Virus record (IMG/VR): IMGVR_UViG_3300032782_000001
Coordinates: 116,404 to 180,403 of that record
Source: a virus
Length of the DNA: 64,000 nt
Reading direction: 5' to 3' (one strand)
Position 1 is the first letter of the stretch. Every line of letters begins with the position of its first letter. Position numbers and translations under genes: made by a program. The notes under the pieces are model-generated. The model made no database searches and had not been told where the DNA came from. It saw only the letters and a list, made by a program, of their open reading frames with translations. Positions 3,203-53,925 of the stretch are shown here, piece by piece.

Positions 3203-3862
3203 ATGCATGTCATGGATCCATATGGTATTGAACCTAAAAAGAGGAACCAGGTTCGTCACACTCCGCCATCTCGATCGAATTTTTTGAATCGATTCCGAGA
3301 TAGGATCGTAAAGTGTGATGATGATTGGATTATCGTAAGGAATTGGGCCTCTGAGCTCAGCATGCCAATACTGATAGTAGCATCGTTGTTCAATTCGCTT
3401 GTAGCTGAAGGGATTTTGGAAGGACCTCTTCCCGTTCCTGTCGAAGAAGAACATCTCAAGTACGGCGGCCGAGGCATTTGTTTCTTAAATGGGAAATGGT
3501 ATTACAGAGATTTCGAATTTGAGAGATTTTACAAATGGGGATCTCGCGGTTGTCAGAAAGTCAAGAAATGTGGTAAATCCGAACTGCCAATAGGCAGGCA
3601 ACCTTCTAAAAGGACTATTTCCAAAAAGGCACAGGAAAGGCCTTTGAAACTGTGTGAATGGAACGGGAAAGGATACCGTATTAATCGAGACGCACCAACA
3701 TTCAAGGAAGCCGCGAGAACACAGGTGCAGGTTACTACGGGTTCTATTTGTAATCGATGCGGCATTCAGTTGGATTTCAATGGGAAACATTCTAGAAGAA
3801 GCAGAGGACATACTCGAATTAAATGTAACAAATTTATCGTAAAAACTGTCATGGAAAGCTGA
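3203..3862 (+). CDS. zinc-ribbon-containing protein, C-terminal ...KTVMES
   Basis: 219-aa ORF; CNRCGIQ...KCNKFIVKTVMES tail matches family consensus. Confidence 0.5.
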   Translation: MHVMDPYGIEPKKRNQVRHTPPSRSNFLNRFRDRIVKCDDDWIIVRNWASELSMPILIVASLFNSLVAEGILEGPLPVPVEEEHLKYGGRGICFLNGKWYYRDFEFERFYKWGSRGCQKVKKCGKSELPIGRQPSKRTISKKAQERPLKLCEWNGKGYRINRDAPTFKEAARTQVQVTTGSICNRCGIQLDFNGKHSRRSRGHTRIKCNKFIVKTVMES

Positions 3863-3883
3863 CCTGGGATTGTATTGTCGACC

Positions 3884-4720
3884 ATGGCGAAGACTCCTCC
3901 TTATCCTTTCCTCAAATGGGCTGGCGGGAAAGGCCGAGTCGCGTCACGAATTTTGGCGCGACTCCCTGAATCGATCAATACTTATTACGAACCATTTCTT
4001 GGTGGAGGAGCTATTTTCTTTGAATTGGCAAAAGAAAAGCGGTTCAAGCGTGCCGTCTTATCTGATATGAATCCGGCACTCATCAACTGTTGGCAAGTCA
4101 TTCAAGCCAATGTTGAATCTCTGATCCGTGAGCTCCAAAAGTCCCAGTATAAGTATGAAAAGAAGACGTATTTGAAAATCCGAGCAGCTGATATTTCGAC
4201 ATTTTCAGACGTCCAAAAGGCTGCCAGGACTATTTACCTCAATAAGACTTGTTTCAATGGTCTTTATCGAGTAAATAGTCAAGGCAATTTCAACGTACCT
4301 TTTGGCAAATACTCCAACCCAACGATTTGTGATGAATCTAATCTCACGGCCGTAAGTCAAGCTCTAAAAGGCGTTGAGATCAAAATTTGCGAGTTCAATG
4401 TCGCGGAGAAAGCCAAGATTGGAGATGCGGTGTATTTCGATCCTCCGTATCTACCAATTTCGGCTACTTCGAAATTCACGGCATATACTGAATTAGGATT
4501 CGGGTTGGAAGATCACGAAAAACTTGCTGGACTTTTCCAACATATCGGTAAGAAAGGTGTTAGATGTGTCCTTTCCAATTCAGCGGCGAAGAAAGCTATT
4601 GAGTTATACTCGGATTTCGACATGGATAAATTCATTGGAACTAGGTCAGTCGGTGGTCCAGTAGATTTCCGGAAACCCGCTGGCGAAATCATTGTGTTCA
4701 ATGGACCGAAAACAAAGTAA
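3884..4720 (+). CDS. dam: DNA adenine methyltransferase (Dam-like, alpha-group N6-adenine MTase)
   Basis: Motif I FLKWAGGKG near N-terminus and motif IV DPPY (VYFDPPYLP); length ~279 aa typical of Dam; ATG at 3884 (track ORF 3875 starts at TTG). Confidence 0.9.
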   Translation: MAKTPPYPFLKWAGGKGRVASRILARLPESINTYYEPFLGGGAIFFELAKEKRFKRAVLSDMNPALINCWQVIQANVESLIRELQKSQYKYEKKTYLKIRAADISTFSDVQKAARTIYLNKTCFNGLYRVNSQGNFNVPFGKYSNPTICDESNLTAVSQALKGVEIKICEFNVAEKAKIGDAVYFDPPYLPISATSKFTAYTELGFGLEDHEKLAGLFQHIGKKGVRCVLSNSAAKKAIELYSDFDMDKFIGTRSVGGPVDFRKPAGEIIVFNGPKTK

Positions 4721-5004: not shown

Positions 5005-6384
5005 GTGAACCATGATACGAAGATCGCCATGATTCTTCATGCGGCGAGGTCTTTAGTATCGAGGAAGCAACCCGCTTCCGTTATTGAAATTTTTGCTGGC
5101 TTCGTTAATCCTACCAGCAACAAGCCGATTAGCTCAAGCAGAAAACACGCATTATTGGACCATTGGGTGTCCAATGGATGGGTTTCGCGAAGGCGTGTGA
5201 AAGGGATCGATCATTATTCGGCGCTCTCCGTTTCAGACTTGGAGGCGGTTGTAGAAGTACACGAGGAAGAAGAAGCAGACATGAAAAGAAAGCGCTACAG
5301 TCGTCTGTCCGAAGAGCTACACGGTAAAGGGCTAGTAGCCGTACGCGCTTTGAAGAAACTTCTATCCGACGAAACTCCTCAACCACGCACTAGTCTATTC
5401 ACCGTCTATCGAGGAGATAAGTTCCAAGAACGAGCAGCTCTGAGTCCTCCATGGCAAATGGAACTTCTCCAAGTTCTTACAGGGAATGGAGTCGTTGTGA
5501 AAATCGACGGCAATCCCACTCTTTACAAGATTGGAGACCATGAAGCGGCCCAAAATCTTGTAGAAGGGATTGAGCATCCATGCATCATTTCTCTCATTGA
5601 TCCTAACACTCCATGTGGGTTGGATCATGAGTCTATGAGACAGAGGAAACTGAACAAAGAACGTACTCTGAATGTGAAGGTTCCCACTCATGAGTCTATC
5701 CCCGAAGAGGAGCTTCCTACAGAATCTATCGTGACTACGTCCGAATCGGTCATTGATCAAGCTCCCGCGTTTCCAGCCGCTGTTCCAGCCGAATCGATCG
5801 AAGAAGAACCCAAGGATAAACTTCAAGAGAAAGAGGACGGTCTCCTTGAGACTATCCTTGAGCAAGTCTTAGATTCGATGAAAGCGCAAAATGCACTCAG
5901 TGAGCGCATTGCGAATCATGTGAAAGATCTCGGTGGGTACATGAAATCTACGAATGACTTCATGCATACGACCAAGGAGTCACTGAAGCATATTGATCAG
6001 AGAATCGTCAGATTGGAAGAATTAATTCGTTCGTCTAATTCTGATTCTAAGCAGAAGGCCGTTTCGAAATTAGAAGAGAAAATGATTCATGACGTCATTT
6101 CCAAATGTGACGAATCGGTCCGATTGGCGACGCAGTCTACTATAACGAGCTTGAAGATTGAAATCGGCTCGATGAAATCTGGATTCCAATCAATGGAATC
6201 GGCCATTGCAGAAGTGGCTGCGTCCATGGCATCCATTTCAGCACACATTCAAAAACCTCGCTCGAAAATGTCCAGGAAGGCCCGATGGGGTCACATCCTC
6301 GGGCGTCTCGATGTAGTTGTGAACGATCTTGACACCTTGAAGGAGTTGGCATTGGAAACTGTTCCGGGTTCCAATTCTTCATAA
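5005..6384 (+). CDS. hypothetical protein with acidic and coiled-coil regions
   Basis: 459-aa ORF; EEEEAD acidic patch and long helical C-terminal half. Confidence 0.55.
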   Translation: MNHDTKIAMILHAARSLVSRKQPASVIEIFAGFVNPTSNKPISSSRKHALLDHWVSNGWVSRRRVKGIDHYSALSVSDLEAVVEVHEEEEADMKRKRYSRLSEELHGKGLVAVRALKKLLSDETPQPRTSLFTVYRGDKFQERAALSPPWQMELLQVLTGNGVVVKIDGNPTLYKIGDHEAAQNLVEGIEHPCIISLIDPNTPCGLDHESMRQRKLNKERTLNVKVPTHESIPEEELPTESIVTTSESVIDQAPAFPAAVPAESIEEEPKDKLQEKEDGLLETILEQVLDSMKAQNALSERIANHVKDLGGYMKSTNDFMHTTKESLKHIDQRIVRLEELIRSSNSDSKQKAVSKLEEKMIHDVISKCDESVRLATQSTITSLKIEIGSMKSGFQSMESAIAEVAASMASISAHIQKPRSKMSRKARWGHILGRLDVVVNDLDTLKELALETVPGSNSS

Positions 6385-12494: not shown

Positions 12495-13021
12495 CTGTCC
12501 ATTACCTCCGTCGCAATCTTGGACATGTCAGCGTTAGCCTCAAGCAGGACCCACAAGACGCGGGCATCTGCCGCTACCATAAATTTCTCGTGTCGCCAAT
12601 CCTGGCAGTACCAGTCATAACCTTCGTAAGTTTTCTTTCGTTCTCCTTGATGGAGACGGGTCCTACAAGGACGTACTTGCAGCATTACATGTCCGTTACT
12701 AAGTTCAGGGAGAACTTCGAAATGGAGCATGGCGATAGTCGTGGAAGTCGGGTTTGAAGAATAATCTTTGTGCTCGGATGTTGACCATTTCACCCAAAAA
12801 CGGTTACCACCACTGCAATGAATATGGATATGGTAGGAACAAAATTCAACGGATGCTTTTAGCCTGTCAAATTCTTGGATCAGGTGAGAAATTACTGAGT
12901 CATGTAGCTCACTGAACATCATTCCAGATAATACGTTCAGACTTTGCTGTAAAATGAATCCGGAGGTTTCCATGTCAGTTATTGTAGAGATCAGGGCCGC
13001 CGAAGGCGGAGATGACGCCAA
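12491..13021 (-). CDS. hypothetical protein (ends ...ATEVMDS)
   Basis: 176-aa minus ORF; no competing plus ORF; C-terminal VM-tail. Confidence 0.45.
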   Translation of the reverse strand: MASSPPSAALISTITDMETSGFILQQSLNVLSGMMFSELHDSVISHLIQEFDRLKASVEFCSYHIHIHCSGGNRFWVKWSTSEHKDYSSNPTSTTIAMLHFEVLPELSNGHVMLQVRPCRTRLHQGERKKTYEGYDWYCQDWRHEKFMVAADARVLWVLLEANADMSKIATEVMDS

Positions 13022-13638
13022 ACTCCTCGTTGAGGATCAACTCCGAGTCTATGCGCGCCGCGCGGTTCGGAGGGGTCTTTGACCTTGAAGTAACCGAACG
13101 CCTTCCGGGCCTCGTCGTCTTCCGGTTAACCGGTAAAGGTGCAGACGAAGCTTGGAAGGATGAAGCCGGTGGACACCGCTGGCAAAGGATTCCCCCAACC
13201 GAAAAAAGGGGTCGAGTCCAAACGAGCACTGTGACAGTGGCAGTTTTGCCAGAGCCCACAGAAGCTCAGATCCGGATCGATCCGAGGGACATAGAAGCGT
13301 CCACTACTCGTGGATCTGGTCCTGGTGGTCAAAATCGAAATAAAGTGGAAACGTGTGTCATTTTGAAGCACATCCCTACGGGGCTAACTGTTCGTTGTGA
13401 ATCTGAGAGATCACAACATCAGAATCGAGCTATTGCCCTGGCACTCCTCCGGGCCAGATTATGGGACGCTGCACAGAAGCAGGCCATTGGAGCTCGTGAT
13501 GATAACCGGAAACGTCAAATTGGATCCGGAATGCGTGGAGACAAGAGAAGAACAATTCGATGCCAGGATGGGATAGTCAACGATCACTTGACTGGAAGAC
13601 ACTGGAACTTCAAAGAATATGAGCGCGGTGACTGGTAA
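12972..13638 (+). CDS. PrfH-like class-I peptide chain release factor (lacks domain 1; GGQ motif); expression requires programmed +1 frameshift at CTT-TGA-C (13077-13083)
   Basis: Frame 0 (12972..13082) gives MSVIVEIRAAEGGDDAKLLVEDQLRVYARRAVRRGL-stop. The +1 frame from 13081 continues DLEVTE...GGHRWQRIPPTEKRGRVQTSTVTVAVLPE...SGPGGQNRNKVETCVILKHIPTG...RSQHQNR. The two frames together align with RF1/RF2 domains 2-4. The shift site is GGAGGGG-T-CTT-TGA-C, the canonical prfB cassette. Confidence 0.8.
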
Positions 13639-15699: not shown

Positions 15700-16431
15700 T
15701 CAAATGCCGGTGAGTTCGCACCACCGGTCTATCACCATTTGAGCGTATGCAATGGATGGCATTCCGTAGGCACCCAGAGAAAAGGCATCGTTTACTTCAA
15801 CAACAAGTGTCTTTCCTTCCGACGTGACTCCGAGGTCCAGAGAATAAGCCACAGGCGCGCTTTTAAACGCCAGTACACATTTTTGCGCAATTTCAAAATC
15901 CGGATATTTCGTGAAGTCACCTCGATAATGACGACAGTTCACAATCAGTCCTCGATGAATGAACAGTCTATATTCAGCCACGAAGTCCACCACATCAGAG
16001 GCTAAGATTTCGAATTCATCCGGGAATGAAGCCGTCTTGATAAGATCCCGGATTGCGCCACTCGTTACAAACCCTGTGAACGCTTTACCACTTTTGAGTG
16101 GCTTGATGAACATGTGATGATTATTTTCGAGACGCTCCCTAACATATTTCATGTTGGTTTCCCACATATGTCGACCATAAAATTCGCGAATTTCTTCGAC
16201 AGGTCCGTGATCTAATGTAGGTTGCACAATTCCAAGTCTATCCAGAGCTCGACGCACAGGGCCGATCCATCCATGAACTAACGTCTCTTTGCGGAGTTCT
16301 AGTGAATCGATTTCCTCGGCCGTGAAAGGAATTGTTTCTATACCAAGCATATAACATCCATACCACAGGGAAAAAGCGGTCTCATTAATGAACTCACCGT
16401 TTTTCTTCTGGATGTATGCGAGATCAATCAT
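15700..16431 (-). CDS. ATP-grasp fold protein (putative)
   Basis: FIKPLKSGKAFTG, EYRLFIHRG and DLGV..GKTLVVEVND resemble ATP-grasp lysine, central and C-terminal motifs. Confidence 0.5.
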   Translation of the reverse strand: MIDLAYIQKKNGEFINETAFSLWYGCYMLGIETIPFTAEEIDSLELRKETLVHGWIGPVRRALDRLGIVQPTLDHGPVEEIREFYGRHMWETNMKYVRERLENNHHMFIKPLKSGKAFTGFVTSGAIRDLIKTASFPDEFEILASDVVDFVAEYRLFIHRGLIVNCRHYRGDFTKYPDFEIAQKCVLAFKSAPVAYSLDLGVTSEGKTLVVEVNDAFSLGAYGMPSIAYAQMVIDRWCELTGI

Positions 16432-16458
16432 TAGACATGTTACAGCGTAAGATCTCGC

Positions 16459-17409
16459 ATGCGACTCCGAGGAACAGAATTTGGCAGAGTTTGGTGCTCT
16501 TCAGGATCATTGGGATTCTTCGGTGACGGATATTGGTATCATCGGTTGATGAAACCGTTCGGTCTGGACTACGAAGATACTACCTTCGTGGCTAAGACGA
16601 CGACTCTCTTCCCAAGGAAAGGGAACATGCCTTTGAAGGAAGATAAGGTGACGCCGAAAAATTTACTTCCTTCTTGCATTAAGATCAACTTTCGGAAAGG
16701 GGCAGTTCTGAATTCCGTCGGACTCAGCGGACCAGGTTTTTTCGATCTGATTGGAACAGGGAAATGGCAAAGGAGAACCGAACCTTTCCTCATTTCCTTC
16801 ATGTCAGTATCTTCAACGCCTGAGGGAAGGCTCTCGGAGCTTCGAGGCTTCGTTAGTTTTCTTAAGCCGAAAATCCAAGAATTTCAGGCGCCTTTCGGTG
16901 TGGAAATGAACTTCTCATGCCCAAATGTTGGGCTCCATTCCGGAGAGTTATCCTCTGAAGTCATGACGGCTTTGGAAACAGCTGCTCCGCTTCAAGTCCC
17001 TCTTATTCCGAATTTCGGACCCGACGTCTCCACAAAGATCATTTGGGACACCATGCTTCATCCTTCTTGTGATGCAGTGTCTATTTCCAACACTTTGAAG
17101 TGGGGAATGATGCCTGATCGCGTGGATTGGGAATCCATTTGGGGGTCTAAATCCTCTCCACTAGTCCAATTTGGAGGTGGAGGAATGTCCGGGTCTCCTA
17201 TTTTCCCGATAGTGTTGGAACTCGTCCAAGAAGTTTGCAAAGACTCTATTCCGAAACCCCTGATTGCGGGCGGCGGAATCATGAACGAGGCTAACGCTGT
17301 AGCACTCATTAAGTCTGGAGCTTCTGCCATCAAGCTGGGAACAGTTGCGATGCTCAGGCCGTGGCGTGTACGTGGGATTGTAAAGAAAGTTCGGGAGATG
17401 ATGCTTTGA
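16459..17409 (+). CDS. pyrD: dihydroorotate dehydrogenase (class 1-like)
   Basis: NFSCPNVG active-site motif and C-terminal LIAGGGIMNEANAVALIKSGASAIKLGT FMN-binding motif. Confidence 0.8.
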   Translation: MRLRGTEFGRVWCSSGSLGFFGDGYWYHRLMKPFGLDYEDTTFVAKTTTLFPRKGNMPLKEDKVTPKNLLPSCIKINFRKGAVLNSVGLSGPGFFDLIGTGKWQRRTEPFLISFMSVSSTPEGRLSELRGFVSFLKPKIQEFQAPFGVEMNFSCPNVGLHSGELSSEVMTALETAAPLQVPLIPNFGPDVSTKIIWDTMLHPSCDAVSISNTLKWGMMPDRVDWESIWGSKSSPLVQFGGGGMSGSPIFPIVLELVQEVCKDSIPKPLIAGGGIMNEANAVALIKSGASAIKLGTVAMLRPWRVRGIVKKVREMML

Positions 17410-18410
17410 AAATTTCCATTCGAAGGCCAGATGATTTCCATGTTCATTTAAGAGATGGTGACATTCCATCTCTCGTAGGTCCATATACGTCTGATTCCTT
17501 CTCAAGGGCTTTGGTGATGCCCAACACTTCTTCTCCCATTCTCTCAGCGATGGATGCTGAAACCTACAGGAAGAAGCTTCGAGAAGATGTCCCCCTTCTT
17601 GAGCCCCTCATGACTATTCAGCTCACAAGTTCTACTTCACCAGAAATGATCTTGGAAGCCCAAAAAGTGGGGGTTATGGCTGCCAAGTTTTACCCCTTGG
17701 GGGTCACAACCAATTCAGGGAACGGATCTCTTCAGATCACTGATTTGAGATCTCAGCTCTCCATGATGGAAGAAATTGGAATGATCTTATGCCTCCATGG
17801 AGAAACTCCAAACGTTTTTTGTATGGACAGGGAACGCGATTTCTTGCAACGTTCCCTCATGCCGCTGTCGAAGGGGTTTCCTAAACTCAAGATTGTTCTG
17901 GAACATCTATCCACGGCTGATGCTGTTGGCTACGTAGAAAATCTCCCCGACAATGTTGCAGCCACCATCACAGCTCATCATCTAGTCTTGACTCTGGATG
18001 ATGTTTTGGGAGATAAACTGAAGACGCATCATTTCTGTAAGCCCATAGCCAAGCACCCGAGAGACAGAGAAGAACTCCGAAGGGCGGCCACTTCCGGGAA
18101 TCCAAAATTCTTCCTCGGAACTGATTCAGCACCTCATCCAATCAATGGTAAAGAATGTGCTGAAGGATGTGCCGGAGTTTTCACTGCACCAGTTGCCATG
18201 GAAATCTTGGCAGAAGAATTTGAGAAAGCAGATGCTCTCCAAAAATTGGAAGCGTTCACCAGCGAATTTGGAGCACGATTCTACGGACTTCCATTGAATA
18301 AAGAAAAACTCGTTTTAGAGAAGAAATTGCGACGAGTTCCTGGTATGGTACAGAGAAATTTTGTACCATTTATGAGCGGTAAGGAACTATTATGGTCTCG
18401 AAGCTCTTGA
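17406..18410 (+). CDS. pyrC: dihydroorotase (class II, PyrC-like)
   Basis: LKISIRRPDDFHVHLRDGD...MPNTSSPI and LGTDSAPHP...CAGVFTAP...FYGLPLN collinear with E. coli PyrC; TTG at 17406 with GGGAG SD preferred over GTG 17361. Confidence 0.9.
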   Translation: MKISIRRPDDFHVHLRDGDIPSLVGPYTSDSFSRALVMPNTSSPILSAMDAETYRKKLREDVPLLEPLMTIQLTSSTSPEMILEAQKVGVMAAKFYPLGVTTNSGNGSLQITDLRSQLSMMEEIGMILCLHGETPNVFCMDRERDFLQRSLMPLSKGFPKLKIVLEHLSTADAVGYVENLPDNVAATITAHHLVLTLDDVLGDKLKTHHFCKPIAKHPRDREELRRAATSGNPKFFLGTDSAPHPINGKECAEGCAGVFTAPVAMEILAEEFEKADALQKLEAFTSEFGARFYGLPLNKEKLVLEKKLRRVPGMVQRNFVPFMSGKELLWSRSS

Positions 18411-18459: not shown

Positions 18460-18533
18460 CCGCCAGTAGCTCAGTTGGTAAGAGCACGAGCCTTATAAGC
18501 ACGGAGTCGGTGGTTCGATCCCACCCTGGCGGA
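18460..18533 (+). tRNA. tRNA with anticodon TAT (Ile, AUA-reading)
   Basis: Cloverleaf: acceptor CCGCCAG/CTGGCGG, D-arm GCTC-AGTTGGTAA-GAGC, anticodon loop CTTATAA, T-arm GGTGG-TTCGATC-CCACC; no CCA encoded. Confidence 0.6.
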
Positions 18534-18534
18534 C

Positions 18535-19768: not shown

Positions 19769-20185
19769 ATGTATCAGATGAGTGAAGAAGAGCGCGCGGA
19801 GCGCTCCAAGGTGAAGGCTCTCCACGCGGCTATTCGCGGATGCGGCCCGGTTGGTGACCGGTATCGCAATCTCGCGTGGGGTTTCGTGCGCGGTTTCCCA
19901 TACCGACGCATTGAGCGGAACCATCATGTTCAAATGTTGGACAACGCCAACTATGAACAGATGGCGAAGCTCGACAACCATTATCGTCAACTTGACGGTC
20001 AGTGGTTTTATGAACACAATATGCCCTCGGAGACTTGGCTCTTCGACACCTTGAAGAAGTTCCTCCCGGAACTTAAGAAGGAACAGATTGTCACGTGGAT
20101 GCGTGACATGTCCGGTGCAATTCCTCCGCCGCCACCTCGGCCAAAGCGGACGCGTGAAGAAGCGATGGCTCACGCGGGGGTGTAG
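19769..20185 (+). CDS. hypothetical protein
   Basis: 138-aa ORF with good SD; Pro-rich C-terminus. Confidence 0.6.
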   Translation: MYQMSEEERAERSKVKALHAAIRGCGPVGDRYRNLAWGFVRGFPYRRIERNHHVQMLDNANYEQMAKLDNHYRQLDGQWFYEHNMPSETWLFDTLKKFLPELKKEQIVTWMRDMSGAIPPPPPRPKRTREEAMAHAGV

Positions 20186-20523
20186 TGGACAAGCTATACG
20201 TCATCGTCCGGGGGGATCTTCCCCCCGGAGACCAGGCCGTCCAATCCATGCATGCGGCGTTGAAATACGCCAAAGAGCATTCGGATTGGACGGCCTGGTA
20301 CGAGGCTTCCAATTACATTGCGCTCCTAAGCGTGCCTAATGAGCGAGAGCTCATGAAATTGCTGATGAAAGCGCGAGATCGAGATCTCAAATTCGCAGCT
20401 TTCTGCGAGCCGGATCTAGATGATTCTATGACTGCTATTGCACTTGAACCCGGGTTCCGATCCAGGCGCTTGTGCAATGGGCTCCCGCTTGCGCTTTCGG
20501 AAAACCAAAATATTCCGGCGTAA
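20185..20523 (+). CDS. peptidyl-tRNA hydrolase, PTH2 family
   Basis: KLYVIVRGDLPPGDQAVQSMHAAL matches PTH2 core (VxVVRxDLxMGxGKxAAQCxHAA). Confidence 0.7.
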   Translation: MDKLYVIVRGDLPPGDQAVQSMHAALKYAKEHSDWTAWYEASNYIALLSVPNERELMKLLMKARDRDLKFAAFCEPDLDDSMTAIALEPGFRSRRLCNGLPLALSENQNIPA

Positions 20524-21202: not shown

Positions 21203-21781
21203 ATGGAAGATAACGAGATTCTCGGGAATCCGCGCGATGGCATCATTGAGCTATTGAAGGCTCGAAGTGTCAAATTTGGGAATTTCACTCTAGCGTCAGG
21301 GAAGAAGAGCGATTTCTTCGTGGATTGCAAACAATCCATTCTCACTGGTATCGGACATGTCTGGGCTGGGCAACTGATGTTGGAAGCTGTCGCCCTTCAC
21401 TTCAAGGAAGCTAGGGCTGTAGCAGGGGTGGAACTCGGTGGGTGCCCCCTGGCGAGTTCAGTGGCGCTCCTCAGTGCTGTCGCTCCTGAAATTCATAGTC
21501 TGGATGCTCTATACGTTCGTAAGACTAAGAAAGATCACGGAACTGGGAATCTTGTAGAAGGTAAAGGTGACATGGAATCCGGAACCCCGGTCGTCTTGCT
21601 TGAGGACGTCGCGACGACTGGAGGATCTTCCATGAGAGCTATCAAAGCACTTCAAGATGAAGGATTCCGGGTCCTCGGGGTTATTACCCTCCTGGATAGG
21701 AATGAAGGCGCTTCTGACGCGTTCCGTGAAGCCGACATCCCGTTTGTCGCCATCTTGGACCGATGCGACCTCGAGGACTGA
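21203..21781 (+). CDS. pyrE: orotate phosphoribosyltransferase
   Basis: VKFGNFTLASGKKSDFFVDC and PRPP motif VVLLEDVATTGGS. Confidence 0.85.
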   Translation: MEDNEILGNPRDGIIELLKARSVKFGNFTLASGKKSDFFVDCKQSILTGIGHVWAGQLMLEAVALHFKEARAVAGVELGGCPLASSVALLSAVAPEIHSLDALYVRKTKKDHGTGNLVEGKGDMESGTPVVLLEDVATTGGSSMRAIKALQDEGFRVLGVITLLDRNEGASDAFREADIPFVAILDRCDLED

Positions 21782-22713
21782 TCAGCGTCTTCCTGGTTCT
21801 GTCTTGTTCCAAGCAGCCAGTTCAGACGAACACCGAAGGCATCCCTGACGCCGGACAACCGGTCGTCGTCGAAGCCGTCCCGCTTGAGCCGGAAAACCAC
21901 CTTCCTGTCGTTACTCTCGGTGAATATTCCACCGAGTATTCATGCGAAGGGAAGGATGAAGCTCGAGCCAAGAATATCGAGCTTGCAGCTTCTCGTCTCC
22001 AAGCGTGGAACGAGAATTGGAACCCTGGCGAGGAATTCAGTTTTAACGATGCAGTCGGACCACGGACTTCAGAAGCTGGGTTCTTAAACGCTCCCGTCAT
22101 CTTCATGGGTGAGACCACAGCAGGGATAGGTGGAGGAGTCTGCCAAGTTAGTTCCACGCTCCACGCGGCCGCTCTCATGAGTGGATTGGAAGTTATTACC
22201 CGTCGCCCCCATACGCGCTTCTCCAAGTATATTCCTCACGGCTTAGATGCGACGGTGGCTTATCCGCCTGAATGCAATGGGAATCACCGGGAGAATATCG
22301 CGAATGGAAAAAATCCGAAGTGTGATTCGGTGGATTTGATTCTCCGAAACCCATTCGGATTTGAGATCAGTATTAAGACATTTACTGAAGAATCAGGTTT
22401 AGGGAAGAAGCGACTGAGAATCTGGATCGAAGGAGCCAAGAATCCGATCGAGAAAGCTTCCTACCGCATCATGCAGTCCGGTGGCGTGGATTTTAAAAGG
22501 ACCTTCCATAAAATTAGTCGAATCCGGACTGCTACTTACAAGAAGCTAGTTCAATCCGGTCAACAAGGGGCTCATGTTACTTCATTCATATCATATTTGA
22601 TGAAGGACGGGACGAAGAAAGAAATCAGCTACAGGAGTGAGTACCCTCCGGTGAACGAAACCTGGGAGGTTGGACTTCTGTACGATATGTCAGGTCCGCC
22701 GCCTTGGGAATAG
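21763..22713 (+). CDS. VanW-domain protein, probable lipoprotein
   Basis: GGGVCQVSSTLHAAALMSGLEVITRRPH matches VanW core; N-terminal LVLSCS lipobox-like. Confidence 0.6.
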   Translation: MRPRGLISVFLVLSCSKQPVQTNTEGIPDAGQPVVVEAVPLEPENHLPVVTLGEYSTEYSCEGKDEARAKNIELAASRLQAWNENWNPGEEFSFNDAVGPRTSEAGFLNAPVIFMGETTAGIGGGVCQVSSTLHAAALMSGLEVITRRPHTRFSKYIPHGLDATVAYPPECNGNHRENIANGKNPKCDSVDLILRNPFGFEISIKTFTEESGLGKKRLRIWIEGAKNPIEKASYRIMQSGGVDFKRTFHKISRIRTATYKKLVQSGQQGAHVTSFISYLMKDGTKKEISYRSEYPPVNETWEVGLLYDMSGPPPWE

Positions 22714-22718
22714 ATTAT

Positions 22719-22795
22719 GGGTCCGTAGCTCAACTGGCTAGAGCTGTCGTTTTCAACTCGAATGGTTGCGGGTTCAAATCCCGTCGGGCCCTCCA
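22719..22795 (+). tRNA. tRNA-like gene; anticodon positions 34-36 read TCA (UGA-reading) but anticodon stem weak (3 WC pairs)
   Basis: Acceptor GGGTCCG/CGGGCCC, D-arm GCTC-AACTGGCTA-GAGC, T-arm GCGGG-TTCAAAT-CCCGT, encoded CCA; loop TTTCAAC. Confidence 0.4.
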
Positions 22796-22819
22796 CTTTC
22801 AATGAAAAGCAAGCGTCAA

Positions 22820-22892
22820 GCTTCCGTAGCCAAGTTGGTCAGGCAGCGGCTTTCAATTCCGCCACACGTGGGTTCGAGTCCCACCGGAAGCG
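22820..22892 (+). tRNA. tRNA with anticodon TCA (opal-suppressor type)
   Basis: Acceptor GCTTCCG/CGGAAGC, anticodon stem GCGGC/TCCGC (4 bp + C-T), loop TTTCAAT, T-arm GTGGG-TTCGAGT-CCCAC. Confidence 0.55.
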
Positions 22893-22913
22893 CTCGCTAG
22901 GTACTGTGGTACC

Positions 22914-23531
22914 ATGGCGCCTGTAGATATCCCGGATGGCGGTCTCGACTTGTCTTCGGCTACTGAAGACGTTGTGCGAGAATATGCCATGGACCTCATC
23001 AACGAGTACGTCCCGAGCACGACAGGAGACGACAAGTTTGCTGAAATCGCCAAAGATTATGGCGGTTCAGGGACGACCTGCGGTTATTTATGCCATTGGC
23101 TCATGTGGCGAATGGGATGCCGCGATCCGAAAATGGTGAACCGAGATGAGCCGTCAGACGGGCTTCATTATGTTCCCGGCGCGAACATTTCACGGATCTT
23201 CGCTAATCCTCATTTCGTCCATTACAAACCCGGTTTGGGAATGACGCCTGATAATGGGGACATTGTCTTCCTCAGCGACGGGCCCCCCGACACTGAGCAT
23301 GTGTACGTCTCGACTGGAGTGGATGACACGAAAGATCCCCCCATTTGGAGTGGGGCTAACGCGGGTCAGAGAGATAAAACCACTGGCAAACAGTGTTCTA
23401 TCTTCATAGACAGAACATTCTCCCATGATTCTCTCTTATACTCTGGCGGATCCAAGAAGATCGTGGGATGGGTAGATATCAGCCAGCTTCCATTCACTGC
23501 CATGGCGGATCTACACGAACCTGGTGAATGA
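22914..23531 (+). CDS. putative papain-fold cysteine peptidase (transglutaminase/CHAP-like)
   Basis: GTTCGYLCHWLMWRMGCRD candidate catalytic Cys region and downstream His/Asp; weak. Confidence 0.35.
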   Translation: MAPVDIPDGGLDLSSATEDVVREYAMDLINEYVPSTTGDDKFAEIAKDYGGSGTTCGYLCHWLMWRMGCRDPKMVNRDEPSDGLHYVPGANISRIFANPHFVHYKPGLGMTPDNGDIVFLSDGPPDTEHVYVSTGVDDTKDPPIWSGANAGQRDKTTGKQCSIFIDRTFSHDSLLYSGGSKKIVGWVDISQLPFTAMADLHEPGE

Positions 23532-24352
23532 TGCAAGGCATTAAACTCATCTTTAGGTCCAAGGAAAATCGAGTTCTCGCCTTCAAGAACGCAGATGACT
23601 GGGACCTTCCTTCTTGTTCCGTAGAACATGTGGACGAACTCCGAAACTCTACGAGGAATCTTTTCAAGAAGGTAACGGGTGCATTTCCGGATAAAGATCC
23701 CATCCCTGTGTATCGCGGATACGACGATGAATATGGGGTTTCTTCGTCGTATATTTCGGATTGGACAGGGATCCCGAAAACTAAGAAAGGTCAGAAAGCA
23801 GACTGGGTTGATGTTATCGATATATTATCCAGTAAATGGGGACTTTTTGCCCGGGATGCTTTCCACCGGCTCAAATTGATTAACCGTCCTAAGCTGGACT
23901 TGGAAGATCTCTACACAATCAGCAAGAAAGCTTTAAAAGACGGATCTCGTCATGCAAGCGAAGGCGTCGACAAAGTCATTGACGAAATTGTTTTCCTCAT
24001 GGAGATCAATAAATCTGAGGCAGTAGACAACCTGCTTCAGCATATGGATGTAACCAAACTCCATGCTGATATCTTGTCAGCTGCACTGGCGGTACTAGAA
24101 AATTACGATTTACCTTCAAAAGCAAGATTCGTCGAAGATGCCAACATCATCATTCAGGAAATCGATGCCTTACGTCCAAAAATGAAACTTAAAGATGAAT
24201 ATGGGAGAATTTTATCTCATGATGTCCGGGGGGATGCCTTGAAATATTATCGCAAGAAAGCTGTTGAATTCGGAAATCTTCTGCGAGAAGGAAAACTCGG
24301 ACCAGGCCTCCATCGAGGCGGAGCTCCCATCCCCCGCAGGAAAGCAAATTGA
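23528..24352 (+). CDS. hypothetical protein
   Basis: 274-aa ORF. Confidence 0.55.
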   Translation: MMQGIKLIFRSKENRVLAFKNADDWDLPSCSVEHVDELRNSTRNLFKKVTGAFPDKDPIPVYRGYDDEYGVSSSYISDWTGIPKTKKGQKADWVDVIDILSSKWGLFARDAFHRLKLINRPKLDLEDLYTISKKALKDGSRHASEGVDKVIDEIVFLMEINKSEAVDNLLQHMDVTKLHADILSAALAVLENYDLPSKARFVEDANIIIQEIDALRPKMKLKDEYGRILSHDVRGDALKYYRKKAVEFGNLLREGKLGPGLHRGGAPIPRRKAN

Positions 24353-24633
24353 ACTATCAGGAAAAGCAAAGACTCATTCAACAGGCATTGAAAGATATGT
24401 CTGACGGAAAGAGGAATCTTCTCAGTAATCCTTTCGCCGGTCTCATGCCTCCGAGATTGGATCCTTCAGAAGTCGCCAGAAAAATGTTTCCTATTGAGCC
24501 CCTTCCACAAGGAGCGGTGCCAGTATACTTTCTGCCTCAATGCATAAGATGTGATGGTCATTACGAAGATTTGAAAAATCATTCAATCGAAGAATGTAAT
24601 CTTTGCATCGTTGTTGATGTGATGGAGTCATGA
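24349..24633 (+). CDS. small zinc-ribbon protein, C-terminal ...VVDVMES
   Basis: CIRC...ECNLC then VMES-stop; ATGA overlap with next paralog. Confidence 0.55.
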   Translation: MNYQEKQRLIQQALKDMSDGKRNLLSNPFAGLMPPRLDPSEVARKMFPIEPLPQGAVPVYFLPQCIRCDGHYEDLKNHSIEECNLCIVVDVMES

Positions 24634-24881
24634 ACGGTCCGAAACGACTCCACTACAGTGATTCTAACAAGTTGACTGCATCCGTCAATAAAATTAGCCA
24701 TCTCATGACCAACCACGATTGGGAAGATAAGTCCGAACCAGAGAAGAAAGCGGGCGGACTTATCATTTCTAAAATCGAATTGGAATGTCGTAAATGCGGA
24801 TTGGTGGCCGGGTTGCTTCCTCTTGAGGAGTTGGATCGCGATTGCGACATTGTTTTAGTGCGCTCCGTGATGGAGTCATAA
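24630..24881 (+). CDS. small zinc-ribbon protein, C-terminal ...VRSVMES
   Basis: CRKC...DCD then VMES-stop. Confidence 0.55.
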   Translation: MNGPKRLHYSDSNKLTASVNKISHLMTNHDWEDKSEPEKKAGGLIISKIELECRKCGLVAGLLPLEELDRDCDIVLVRSVMES

Positions 24882-25029: not shown

Positions 25030-25406
25030 GGGCCTGATCGGCTTCGACTGGGGAAGAAAGAACGATCTGCGTGCAGGCGGCGCTCGATCCGCCATAACCA
25101 ATCGAGCCGACACAGCTGCCAACGACAACGGCGCCCTCCGCATCGCGGCCTAAAAAACCGCGCGGATGTCTTCCCGGCGAAACTGCTTCCAGTAACCGGA
25201 TGAAGGCACGAACCCAAGAGGAAGCTGGCCGTGGGAGTAACCCTCCTTTTATCCCGACGCCTCAGCCGGGAAGGCGAGATCAAGTCTAGGCTGACAGTGC
25301 GGAAAGACGCGCAAACTCAGTCGCAGGGGATACGGCGACTACGCACGTGAACGAGGGTTGTTTGGACAACTTCAGGACGCGGGTTCGATTCCCGCCAGGT
25401 CCACAA
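25030..25406 (+). ncRNA. ssrA: tmRNA (ssrA); predicted tag ANDNGALRIAA
   Basis: 5' GGGCCTGATCGGCTTCGACTGGGG is like E. coli GGGGCUGAUUCUGGAUUCGACGGG. 3' GGACGCGGGTTCGATTCCCGCCAGGTCCACA is nearly identical to the E. coli tmRNA 3' end. Acceptor pairs 25030-25036 with 25396-25402. Internal ORF GCC AAC GAC AAC GGC GCC CTC CGC ATC GCG GCC TAA. Confidence 0.8.
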
Positions 25407-25417
25407 GGTGTTTGGAA

Positions 25418-25606
25418 ATGCATCAATGGGAAGGTTGGGTATTTCCCAATCCAAAAGACGGTAAAGTCTTAGCTTGGGTCATTTGTGGTAGATGCAGTTA
25501 TTGTGTCCATTATGTAAATCATCAGCCCGGGTTCACACCCCCGATTCCACCGGACAATCCTCCTGATTGCAATGAACGATTGGTGAAATGGGTAATGGAA
25601 CAATGA
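25418..25606 (+). CDS. small Cys-rich protein, C-terminal ...VKWVMEQ
   Basis: CGRCSYC...DCNERLVKWVMEQ; ATG at 25418 just beyond tmRNA. Confidence 0.5.
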   Translation: MHQWEGWVFPNPKDGKVLAWVICGRCSYCVHYVNHQPGFTPPIPPDNPPDCNERLVKWVMEQ

Positions 25607-26873: not shown

Positions 26874-27146
26874 GTGGTCCGTCGAAATCCGAAACACCTC
26901 CCAAAATCCTTCAATCTCCAGGGTCCAATCCACATCCCTGAGGCTTCGAACCTTGGAGATTCAGTTGCGGCAGCGAGTGTGGAAATGGCTGCGTTCAACT
27001 CGCCCCCTCAAGGGGAACTCATCTACCAAAAATTCCACGCGTTGACTCGCTGTCCACAATGCGATTCCATCATCGATCCCAGTAAAAGTGATCACGGTTC
27101 AGAAGAATGTAACCGTCGAATTGTGCTTCAGGTTATGGAGTCCTGA
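26874..27146 (+). CDS. small zinc-ribbon protein, C-terminal ...VLQVMES
   Basis: CPQC...ECNRRIVLQVMES. Confidence 0.5.
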   Translation: MVRRNPKHLPKSFNLQGPIHIPEASNLGDSVAAASVEMAAFNSPPQGELIYQKFHALTRCPQCDSIIDPSKSDHGSEECNRRIVLQVMES

Positions 27147-43080: not shown

Positions 43081-43806
43081 ATGAAAACACTCGGCCTCGA
43101 CCCGAGCTTGCGAGCTTATGGCTGGGCTATATACGACAGTGAAGCCCAGCCACGTAACAGGAGAGTAGCTTCTGGTCATGAGGGGACATTGCCACTTACG
43201 ATCCCCGTCGCCAGATTCATGCACTTCCGATCGATGGTATCAGATTTACTTGAAAAGTATTCTGTGGATGCCGTTGGTTTGGAAAGTCCGGCTTATGGTG
43301 GAGGGCCTTTCGCTGAAAATCACTTCGGTTTAATGATGTTTTCACTCGAATCTATTTTTGAAAAACGGAAAGATTGTGTGCTTTTCGATCCGACTACTTT
43401 GAAATATCTTGTCGGGAAATCCAATGCCGGGAAGATGGACATCCAGAGATTTGTCCAATTGGATACAATGGACCCGGATGTCATCAACAATAATGAAGCG
43501 GATGCTTATTGTGTTGCCAGGGAAGCTGCTCGTTTCATGTTGGTGAAAGACACCAAAATCGATTTATCCCAACTTTCTGATCATGAAAGAATGGTATTCA
43601 TAGAACGCAAACGTAAGGTAAAAAACTCCACCGGAATGCTAAGACTGAAACGAACTGCTCATGCATTCCGTGAGAATAGTAGGTTTTTCAATTTCAGCAA
43701 AGTCCCGGCAGGAGATGTCAAGCTCCCGCAACGTTCAATGGTAAATAAGTCCCTATTACAGTGGCTCACGGACATGGACACTGTAAAAGAAGTGATGGAA
43801 TCATAG
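43081..43806 (+). CDS. RNase H-fold RuvC/YqgF-like putative Holliday-junction resolvase, C-terminal ...KEVMES
   Basis: MKTLGLDPSLRAYGWAIYD N-terminal strand like RuvC ILGIDPGxxxxGyav; acidic residues downstream. Confidence 0.45.
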   Translation: MKTLGLDPSLRAYGWAIYDSEAQPRNRRVASGHEGTLPLTIPVARFMHFRSMVSDLLEKYSVDAVGLESPAYGGGPFAENHFGLMMFSLESIFEKRKDCVLFDPTTLKYLVGKSNAGKMDIQRFVQLDTMDPDVINNNEADAYCVAREAARFMLVKDTKIDLSQLSDHERMVFIERKRKVKNSTGMLRLKRTAHAFRENSRFFNFSKVPAGDVKLPQRSMVNKSLLQWLTDMDTVKEVMES

Positions 43807-53058: not shown

Positions 53059-53554
53059 AACCAAAAGTGAAATTCGGGCCAGAATCGATGAACTCGATAA
53101 AGTCCTCGACAGTCTCGAAGCTGGTTTTGTAGAAGATATATCGCCTTACAAATTCATCGAGGCGCGGAAGAACGCACTGGAAGAGGAACTAGCTCGCGCT
53201 GAGGAAGATCTTTTCGCTTCGGTCCTTCAATCTCATAAAACCATCTGTGCAGTGAAACAGATGGAAGAAGATGCAGCCTATGGCCAAGACCCAGCCCTGT
53301 ATTACACATTAGCTATTTGTGGAGAATCTGGGGAGATGGCGAATAAAATCGTCAAGGCTCTCCGGAATGGAAATGACCCCAACGCGTGCAAAAACGCTGT
53401 CATTTCGGAACTCCCGGATGTTATCATTTATAGCGCCGTCCTAGCATACGTGCTTCAGATCGATTTGACGAGGTTGGTCAACGACAAAGTAAAAATTGTC
53501 ATTGAACGTGCCGAATCTGGTTATTATGGCGGGCCGCTCAGCAAGATCACATAA
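53051..53554 (+). CDS. MazG-like nucleoside triphosphate pyrophosphohydrolase
   Basis: LAICGESGEMANKI E-x-x-GE-x-x-E core. Confidence 0.6.
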   Translation: MAETKSEIRARIDELDKVLDSLEAGFVEDISPYKFIEARKNALEEELARAEEDLFASVLQSHKTICAVKQMEEDAAYGQDPALYYTLAICGESGEMANKIVKALRNGNDPNACKNAVISELPDVIIYSAVLAYVLQIDLTRLVNDKVKIVIERAESGYYGGPLSKIT

Positions 53555-53925
53555 TGAAGTCCAGAGAGTTATGTCGATGGGCGTGTAGTTGGCTCCGCGG
53601 GAAAGGTCATGAATTCCGACCAGGGAATCTTGGAGTTCCTTGTGTAGTATGTATTAAATGTAATCTGCTTCTTACTTCCAGAGGTCGAATACAGACCCCT
53701 TCACACATGTGGTTGGCTGAATCAGCACAGAAACCAAGAATCGGACGTGTAACTTATTGCGGGAGACGAAGTGGCAAGGCAATCACGCCAAAAATGACAA
53801 TCGGATCCATACGCATAACCCACCATCGAAGACAAAACGATAGTTCTTCAAGTTTGCGAAAGATGGCAATGAAAATTTCGCATTCCTGCAAAGAACTTCG
53901 TATACTAGAAGTGATGGAATCATGA
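53554..53925 (+). CDS. hypothetical basic protein, C-terminal ...RILEVMES
   Basis: 123 aa; ATGA overlap with next gene. Confidence 0.5.
   Translation: MKSRELCRWACSWLRGKGHEFRPGNLGVPCVVCIKCNLLLTSRGRIQTPSHMWLAESAQKPRIGRVTYCGRRSGKAITPKMTIGSIRITHHRRQNDSSSSLRKMAMKISHSCKELRILEVMES

Follow-up and report, generated by a model that had tools for sequence, protein, structure and literature searches.

In a 64,000-nucleotide stretch of viral DNA (positions 116,404 to 180,403 of IMG/VR virus record IMGVR_UViG_3300032782_000001, referred to here as the window), 2 tandem tRNA genes on the + strand, tRNA-1 (22719..22795) and tRNA-2 (22820..22892), carry the anticodon UCA, the complement of the stop codon UGA. 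We consider it about an even chance (a probability of roughly 0.5) that these genes, as their sequences suggest, encode functional opal suppressors which bring about partial, possibly late, read-through of UGA in a huge phage of standard genetic code, and that their action is coupled to a release factor of the RF1 type whose synthesis is itself gated by a UGA codon. This window belongs to a contig of 337,333 bp (ENA ERZ27256589 k141_1250017) with a phage-like gene organization and a G+C content of ~48%, and 20.6 kb of sequence was identical between the independent assemblies ENA ERZ27256589 and Logan SRR8881007.

Anatomy of the two tRNAs

We used ARAGORN and the Rfam tRNA covariance model (RF00005) to locate and align the 2 genes. 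ARAGORN reported tRNA(tca) at 22719-22795 and at 22820-22893, and the Rfam model gave scores of 56.7 bits for tRNA-1 and 55.1 bits for tRNA-2, against a gathering score of 29. In the Rfam alignment, positions 34-36 are UCA in both tRNAs (window positions 22753-22755 and 22853-22855), within the loops UUUCAAC of tRNA-1 and UUUCAAU of tRNA-2, as had been read by eye in an earlier note on this DNA; U33, A37 and the 7-nt register of the anticodon loop are present in both. The covariance model placed neither anticodon at TTC (Glu) or at another sense triplet, and it scored neither gene as a pseudogene, these being the outcomes that the earlier note had held out against its own reading.

Both tRNAs have a 7-bp acceptor stem, a 5-bp T stem, a 5-nt variable loop and a D stem of 3-4 bp (3 bp in tRNA-2). 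Position 73 is U in tRNA-1, which has an encoded CCA, and G in tRNA-2, which has none. Neither conforms to the standard 5-bp anticodon stem. In tRNA-1, 3 Watson-Crick pairs (28-42, 29-41 and 30-40) stand between the mismatches G27.A43 and U31.U39, and in tRNA-2 there are 4 pairs and a C31.U39 mismatch, so that the stem structures described in the earlier note were borne out by our parse. With a stop-complementary anticodon in an otherwise intact tRNA, both genes are, on their predicted structures, phage suppressor tRNAs. A scan for sigma-70 promoters and terminators around both tRNAs gave nothing exceeding background.

The earlier note had also suggested that tRNA-1, with its short anticodon stem, might be a degenerate copy. 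This suggestion did not hold up: outside the anticodon the 2 tRNAs are 55-57% identical, and because the identity is only 55% they are not duplicates of each other, which rules out tandem duplication as the origin of the pair. In addition, it is tRNA-1 that has the higher score on the tRNA model, the encoded CCA and, as described below, a body resembling tRNA-Gly(UCC).

ARAGORN labels both genes as tRNA-SeC, and we have given some thought to a selenocysteine identity. The label is merely that program's name for a tca anticodon, and the label and the anticodon are the sole points in favor of the idea. Bacterial tRNA-Sec has an 8+5 (or 9+4) acceptor/T helix, a 6-bp D stem and a long variable arm. 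The 7+5 helix, 3-4 bp D stem and 5-nt variable loop of both tRNAs differ from this form, and clan competition in Rfam keeps both in RF00005 and not in the tRNA-Sec family of the same clan. We regard a selenocysteine function as ruled out for practical purposes.

A conserved slot for stop-anticodon tRNAs

The tRNA pair lies between a VanW-domain gene (21763..22713, +; Pfam VanW, 3.3e-34), which ends at TAG, and a gene for a CHAP-like putative cell-wall hydrolase (22914..23531, +), which ends at a TGA within an ATGA overlap. Homologs of the 22914-23531 product are 197-205 aa long, one with a weak CHAP match and one with a PG_binding_1 domain. We observed the same order in related phages, where a stop-anticodon tRNA comes directly after the VanW gene and upstream of a cell-wall hydrolase gene, and the stop anticodon is kept there in four related phages (UCA; UUA in one). 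In the relative L067, in which the neighbor protein is 70% identical and synteny is complete from the gene for an R2K-clade ATP-grasp protein through the hydrolase gene, one tRNA(UCA) follows VanW. In L076/L077 (VanW 56% identical), a tRNA(UCA) lies 7 nt past VanW and is followed by an amidase-like gene and a transfer-messenger RNA (tmRNA). In L072 (hydrolase 64% identical), the upstream open reading frame (ORF) is the C-terminus of VanW and the slot is occupied by a tRNA(UUA), and in L078, a more distant relative (VanW 44% identical), by a sense tRNA-Val(UAC).

The ortholog of tRNA-2, at positions 3967-4041 of L076, retains UCA at 77% identity. Outside the anticodon, the L067(UCA) and L072(UUA) tRNAs are 74% identical, and tRNA-2 is 71-72% identical to a tRNA(CUA) from the contig L055. 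The putative stop-reading tRNAs fall into at least 3 body types. Among the stop-anticodon tRNAs, 12 of 21 stem pairs have undergone compensatory (both-side) changes, a pattern that points to selection for the tRNA fold. When viral and metagenome contigs were scanned for homologs of the tRNAs with exact and degenerate DNA patterns, there was no match, and megablast of the region against GenBank phages gave none either.

Two of these tRNAs are of other suppressor types. The L072 tRNA(UUA), at 138-215 (Logan SRR22808015), is ochre-type. The L055 tRNA(CUA), at 3811-3886 (IMGVR_UViG_3300040801_006072), is amber-type, has a C31.A39 mismatch and lies near the short release-factor gene of a more distant huge phage; among the tRNAs collected from release-factor loci it is the closest match to tRNA-2 (71%).

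The weakened anticodon stem

In 5 of the 6 stop-anticodon tRNAs the 31:39 pair is non-Watson-Crick (U.U in one, C.U in three and C.A in one), and in two of the six, tRNA-1 and the L067 tRNA, 27:43 is unpaired as well. The anticodon stem of the L076 tRNA(UCA) is fully paired. A 31:39 mismatch is found in 35 of 656 sense tRNAs of the same phages (5.3%), in 15 of the 116 that have A36 (12.9%) and in 5 of 11 tRNA-Trp(CCA) (45%); an anticodon stem of 3 pairs is found in just 4/656. Relative to the A36 baseline, the enrichment among stop-anticodon tRNAs has p ~2e-4 if tRNAs are counted (5/6) and ~8e-3 if lineages are counted (3/4). We had at first entertained a universal 31:39 mismatch in stop-reading tRNAs (5/5); this was broken by the L076 tRNA, and the claim is one of enrichment only. 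In its minimum-free-energy structure tRNA-2 folds as a cloverleaf whose anticodon stem has 4 bp and whose anticodon loop has 9 nt.

The tRNA-Trp(CCA) genes with a 31:39 mismatch are from L013, L014, L026, L040 and L053, a hint that the lineage's decoders of the UGG/UGA box have weakened stems generally.

A release-factor gene of RF1 type with a UGA frameshift

The earlier note had pointed to a CTT-TGA-C shift site in a release-factor gene upstream of the tRNAs, and we observed that the site is real. The gene (12972..13638, +) consists of ORF1 (12972-13079) and ORF2 (13081-13638) and requires a +1 frameshift to give its short product of 221 aa: 35 codons of domain-2 sequence from the ATG at 12972 are followed by a shift at codon 36, and then by the +1 frame to 13638. 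The cassette GGAGGggtCTT TGA C occupies 13065..13083 (+), with the shift site itself at 13077-13083, 9.6 kb upstream of the tRNAs. The features of a prfB-type frameshift, namely a Shine-Dalgarno-like element, CUU UGA C and a functional +1 ORF, are all present: GGAGGggtCTTTGAC. In the 0 frame past the shift site there is a second TGA two codons downstream, and then a TAA.

By its sequence matches the joined product is of RF1 type. It scored 211 bits with prfA and 135 with prfB (183 bits with prfA for ORF2 alone), and it aligned continuously through the junction with solved RF1, at 168 bits versus 97 for RF2. It has a PxT motif (PPT) and GGQ, and it lacks domain 1; with PPT instead of SPF, it is not an RF2. 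Of the release-factor genes of 64 related phages, at least 33 have the cassette at the same position, and the motif R-[IV]-P-P-T-E is kept in ~40 of the 64 relatives, which are from IMG/VR huge-phage contigs. No tRNA(UCA) was found near the release-factor gene in these 64 loci, which hold ~650 other tRNAs and one tRNA(CUA).

From this arrangement, synthesis of a UAA/UAG-type factor is predicted to be gated by how slowly UGA is decoded. Since the factor is of RF1 type, and UGA is not its own stop codon, the gate would not be simple autoregulation. According to Prince et al. (2025, PMC12421855) and Atkins et al. (2016, PMC5009743), programmed frameshifting is known for prfB and has no known counterpart in prfA, and an RF1-type factor gated by a prfB-style frameshift appears to be undescribed.

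Stop-codon usage

Our sample of the 337-kb genome was 79 kb, consisting of the window and its flanks, and the stop-codon statistics are from the 73 kb made up of the window and the upstream flank. When ORFs of the window were tiled under four genetic codes, code 11 was favored, which speaks against a wholesale recoding of TGA in the sampled sequence. Under code 11 the window was tiled at 89%, with TGA terminating 42 of the 95 tiled ORFs. In the 73 kb, TGA terminates 49 of 111 genes (44%) and is the commonest stop, 18 of these TGAs being in ATGA overlaps. Genes anchored by homology that stop at TGA include those for RecA, a sigma factor, OPRT, DHODH and the R2K ATP-grasp protein, and the CHAP-like gene. 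Code 11 also gives an intact PolA (960 aa) past the window, and other genes there are likewise uninterrupted. No gene in the sampled 79 kb, including the hydrolase gene adjacent to the tRNAs, has an in-frame TGA. A search for long ORFs interrupted by one TGA gave two same-frame pairs as candidates, and both were rejected, the TGAs being ordinary stops with the downstream gene having its own ATG. There was no enrichment of back-up stops after TGA in the 73 kb (TAA or TAG within ten codons in 6%; median distance 44 codons) and no signal of a special +4 context. The sampled 79 kb uses the standard code and depends on UGA termination, in agreement with the earlier note, which had read the TGA stops with overlapping ATGA restarts as evidence against wholesale recoding. 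Relatives, too, use the cognate stop beside a suppressor, as in L072, where both of the ORFs flanking the tRNA(UUA) end in TAA. Among the called genes of L065, L073 and L075 (the 79 kb) there was no TrpRS, and the only synthetase-like sequence was a 201-aa HisRS-like fragment.

Isotype and ancestry

The best matches of tRNA-1 to GenBank phages by BLAST were tRNA-Gly(UCC) genes of Pseudomonas phages, with 82% identity over 91% of the query. These sequences align without indels, and the conversion of UCC to UCA would therefore be a single change at position 36. The Gly identity set of bacterial GlyRS comprises U73, G1-C72, C2-G71, G3-C70 and C35; tRNA-1 matches it at U73, G1-C72, G3-C70 and C35, and has G2-C71 instead of C2-G71. 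In the lineage, 37 of 45 Gly tRNAs begin GCG and have U73. A position-based classifier ranked Gly second for tRNA-1, at 0.16. By its database matches the body of tRNA-1 most resembles tRNA-Gly(UCC), and we make no confident isotype assignment.

For the other tRNAs, the L067 tRNA was closest by BLAST to tRNA-Thr, and a logistic classifier inclined to Thr for tRNA-2 and the L067 and L072 tRNAs without a confident call. Statistics of the discriminator base (N73) in the lineage were ambiguous with regard to isotype. A nearest-neighbor assignment among 728 lineage tRNAs was rejected as unreliable, a control tRNA-Ile(UAU) having come out as Lys. By U34 wobble, any tRNA(UCA) can read UGG also, and therefore only charging with Trp would be free of error; yet the bodies of the 2 tRNAs are not Trp-like.

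Proposed mechanism and its alternatives

We propose that tRNA-1 and tRNA-2, which would be of independent origin, occupy a "suppressor slot" between the VanW and cell-wall hydrolase genes, where both would be co-transcribed with the flanking genes of the same strand and processed by host enzymes. Charging would be by host synthetases, for tRNA-1 possibly by GlyRS. The suppressors would then compete with host RF2 for UGA in the ribosomal A site, and the result would be a partial, probably stage-dependent, read-through without a wholesale change of code, with the weakness of the anticodon stems (3 pairs in tRNA-1, 4 in tRNA-2) serving to tune decoding. At the release-factor gene, a suppressor would read the 0 frame into the second TGA and then TAA, which would yield a dead-end peptide and less +1 frameshifting. 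Faster UGA decoding would thus lower frameshifting at the UGA gate of the RF1-type factor, and on this ground we infer that the suppressors and the factor are functionally coupled. Competition at the shift site had been expected in the earlier note also, as had low-level read-through, and our own expectation of such competition derives from the literature on RF2 frameshift competition, reportedly that of Curran and Yarus.

A broader version of this scheme is speculative, and we would expect it to prove wrong more often than right by a wide margin. It holds that this lineage of huge phages keeps the suppressor slot, that tRNA bodies unrelated to one another have become UCA or UUA readers in it time and again, usually with a deliberately weakened stem, and that these work together with the UGA-gated RF1-type factor such that UGA is made leaky, UAA and UAG are reinforced and the standard code is kept. 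This would be a stable strategy distinct from recoding.

Several observations weigh against functional suppression by these tRNAs. The anticodon stem is not formed in the minimum-free-energy structures of tRNA-1 and of the L067 and L072 tRNAs. Neither tRNA-1 nor tRNA-2 has A38; in substrates of MiaA, absence of A38 may preclude the isopentenyl modification of A37 (i6A37) and weaken the reading of UGA. Random-forest and logistic classifiers, with cross-validated accuracies of 0.78-0.79, gave no confident isotype class for any stop-anticodon tRNA, and the discriminator differs between orthologs, being G73 in tRNA-2 and A73 in its L076 counterpart. No ortholog of tRNA-1 was found in the relatives. 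With an efficient suppressor, 49 of the 111 proteins would grow longer, by 44 codons at the median, and any activity must therefore be weak or timed; also, no gene that would be a functional target of read-through was found in the sampled sequence.

Some of these same points would favor the view that the genes do not decode at all, and are either tRNA genes in decay, with an anticodon that came to be UCA by drift, or tRNA-like sequences retained for a different purpose, for instance as signals for processing or sites of recombination. The weak anticodon stems, with that of tRNA-1 missing from its predicted fold, the lack of a tRNA-1 ortholog and of a confident isotype, the unusual position 38 (U38 occurs in 1 of 116 sense tRNAs with A36) and the sense tRNA-Val in the slot of L078 are all consistent with it. 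We nevertheless think this view improbable, as both genes have high model scores with intact acceptor, D and T arms, and four phages have kept a stop anticodon although their tRNA bodies have diverged by 23-50%, with compensatory changes in the stems. Drift would not be expected to hit stop anticodons repeatedly, and the tRNAs near the release-factor genes include UCA in none of ~650 and CUA in one. More improbable still, in our judgment, is that the 2 genes are Trp-charged sense decoders which serve mainly UGG by U34 wobble, as does the tRNA-Trp(UCA) of Mycoplasma, and supplement a phage set without tRNA-Trp, with UGA reading as a side effect. It is true that no tRNA-Trp is among the 26 tRNAs found in the sampled sequence, that tRNA-2 has G73, the bacterial Trp discriminator, as do 10 of 11 Trp tRNAs of the lineage, and that a 31:39 mismatch is shared with 5 of the 11 tRNA-Trp(CCA) of the lineage. 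However, besides the bodies being unlike tRNA-Trp, tRNA-1 carries U73 and the tRNA-2 ortholog of L076 carries A73, the homologous slot of L072 holds a tRNA(UUA) that reads no Trp codon, and the phage tRNA array is cut by the contig end, such that a tRNA-Trp may exist elsewhere.

A more serious competitor to suppression, although we still rate it as unlikely, is partial recoding, in which the tRNAs are a code-change module and late structural or lysis genes outside the sampled 79 kb use in-frame TGA as an amino acid codon (as in codes 4 or 25), the early and middle genes remaining standard. The recognizable genes of our sample are all early or middle (RecA, SbcC-like, sigma factors, Dam, PolA, DnaB and DnaG, pyrimidine synthesis) and no structural genes were identified among them; the phage encodes an RF1-type factor; and the tRNAs adjoin cell-wall hydrolase genes. 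The layout is that described by Borges et al. (10.1101/2021.08.26.457843), in which a TGA suppressor tRNA and RF1 lie upstream of the lysis cassette and the replication genes are standard-code. Against recoding, TGA is the commonest stop (44%) in the region sampled and is not depleted as in the recoding pathway that has been described, and the hydrolase gene directly downstream of the tRNAs is free of in-frame TGA and is itself terminated by TGA. The 2 tRNAs are differently built and have different discriminators, which suggests an ambiguous insertion that would be awkward for sense coding; TrpRS was not seen in the 79 kb; and L072 has a UUA suppressor while the genes beside it stop at TAA.

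Other features of the genome

Early and middle genes in the window include those for RecA/UvsX, an SbcC-like protein, two sigma factors, Dam, a pyrimidine-synthesis set, PTH2, VanW and HNH, and past its 3' end lie DnaB, DnaG, DnaJ and PolA. We recognized no structural genes in the window and flanks. A tmRNA gene with the tag ANDNGALRIAA was found at 25030..25406 (+) by ARAGORN, with an Rfam score of 111.9 bits; that of L076 is at 5618-5968 with the tag ANDNAARLAA, and in both phages the tmRNA is 2 kb downstream of the slot. A gene for a peptidyl-tRNA hydrolase of the PTH2 type is at 20185..20523 (+; Pfam PTH2, 1.5e-8) and is conserved in L067. Together, the tmRNA, PTH2 and release-factor genes form a neighborhood of termination and ribosome-rescue functions. 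An AUA reader, tRNA-Ile(UAU), is at 18460..18534 (+; ARAGORN and Rfam) and is kept a few kb upstream of the slot in three phages, the others being L067 (3015-3089) and L076 (945-1017). Just upstream of the window, on the same contig, there is an array of 23 tRNAs that reaches the contig end (L073, 583-7560), with tRNAs for Glu, Arg, Met, Pro, Val, Ile, Leu, Ser, Thr and Gln. No Trp, Gly or Cys tRNA is present in the part of the array that can be seen. The HisRS-like fragment mentioned above is inside this array (L073, 5752-6357). Huge phages that carry tRNA arrays together with tmRNAs and release factors have been described as a class (Al-Shayeb et al. 2020, PMC7162821).

The segments 15700-18410 and 21203-21781 of the window hold a DHODH-like, dihydroorotase-like and OPRT-like set and the R2K-clade ATP-grasp protein, and the set is syntenic in L067. 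Seven otherwise unrelated ORFs share a C-terminal tail of V-M-E-S/Q followed by the stop (TGA in five), which may be a shared signal. They are at 3203-3862, 24349-24633, 24630-24881, 25418-25606, 26985-27146, 43081-43806 and 53554-53925, and include several small Cys-rich proteins; one of the seven has an N-terminal sequence that, from reading it, we take to be RuvC-like. At 3860-3874, the frame of a 219-aa protein with the VMES tail runs, past its TGA, into the Dam methylase gene without a further stop, and read-through would fuse the two, an arrangement that may be due to chance. The VMES and HNH paralog families are highly divergent, too much so to be of use as probes.

Comparison with known systems

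In the TGA-recoded "Jade" phages the lysis cassette is preceded by a TGA suppressor tRNA, TrpRS and RF1, and TGA suppressor tRNAs occur also in standard-code relatives of recoded phages (Borges et al., 10.1101/2021.08.26.457843). The system described here resembles the Jade module in combining a phage UCA tRNA with an RF1-type factor, both encoded in standard code beside genes of cell-wall or lysis type, with a host that is presumably of standard code. The 2 systems differ in that TGA is here the commonest stop, with neither in-frame TGA nor TrpRS in the sampled 79 kb; in that there are 2 unrelated tRNA bodies, and a release factor without domain 1 whose synthesis depends on a UGA frameshift; and in that the genome is that of a 337-kb environmental huge phage, while the Jade phages are a gut phage clade. 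With the standard-code relatives it shares a UGA suppressor tRNA in a standard-code genome. The model of a recoding pathway begins with stop-codon depletion in low-GC genomes; here, in contrast, G+C is ~48% and TGA is heavily used. As at least four diverged phages have kept the slot, one of them with UUA, the state looks stable rather than transient. The tRNA pair would work as a suppressor module, and three defining marks of a recoding module (in-frame TGA, depletion of TGA and a TrpRS) are absent from the sampled sequence.

The release-factor gene resembles the bacterial prfB frameshift (PMC5009743, PMC12421855) in that a Shine-Dalgarno-like GGAGG stands three bases ahead of CUU UGA C, that the +1 shift leads onto UUU and that the functional protein lies in the +1 frame. 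It differs from prfB in being an RF1-type gene (PxT, prfA-like) from which domain 1 is absent, with the shift at codon 36 in domain 2.

With regard to the anticodon stem, 4-bp stems occur in 5.6% of bacterial tRNAs, and unpairing of the top pair enables tRNA-Trp(CCA) to read UGA, bottom-unpaired stems having been noted and set aside in that study (Fakih et al. 2026, NAR, PMC13092985). Our tRNAs are like those UGA readers in that a shortened or weakened anticodon stem accompanies predicted UGA decoding, and tRNA-1 and the L067 tRNA are also unpaired at 27:43. Those readers, which are Blastocrithidia-like, have the near-cognate anticodon CCA and are unpaired at the top, whereas the phage tRNAs have the cognate UCA and a recurrent mismatch at the bottom of the stem (31:39), one that is not universal.

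So far, phage suppressor tRNAs have mostly been taken for instruments or precursors of recoding. That such tRNAs are conserved in phages which themselves depend heavily on the stop codon concerned suggests that controlled read-through may itself be useful to a phage. The tRNAs and the release-factor gene also offer natural material for tests of how 31:39 pairing affects stop decoding, and of what a UGA-gated RF1-type factor senses. Classical bacterial opal suppressors are tRNA-Gly(UCC) or tRNA-Trp(CCA) with a changed anticodon, and are laboratory or spontaneous mutants of host genes. The inferred one-step change to UCA in tRNA-1, at position 36 relative to phage tRNA-Gly(UCC), is of the same kind; the suppressors described here differ from the classical ones in being phage-borne and conserved, and in having an anticodon stem that is structurally modified.

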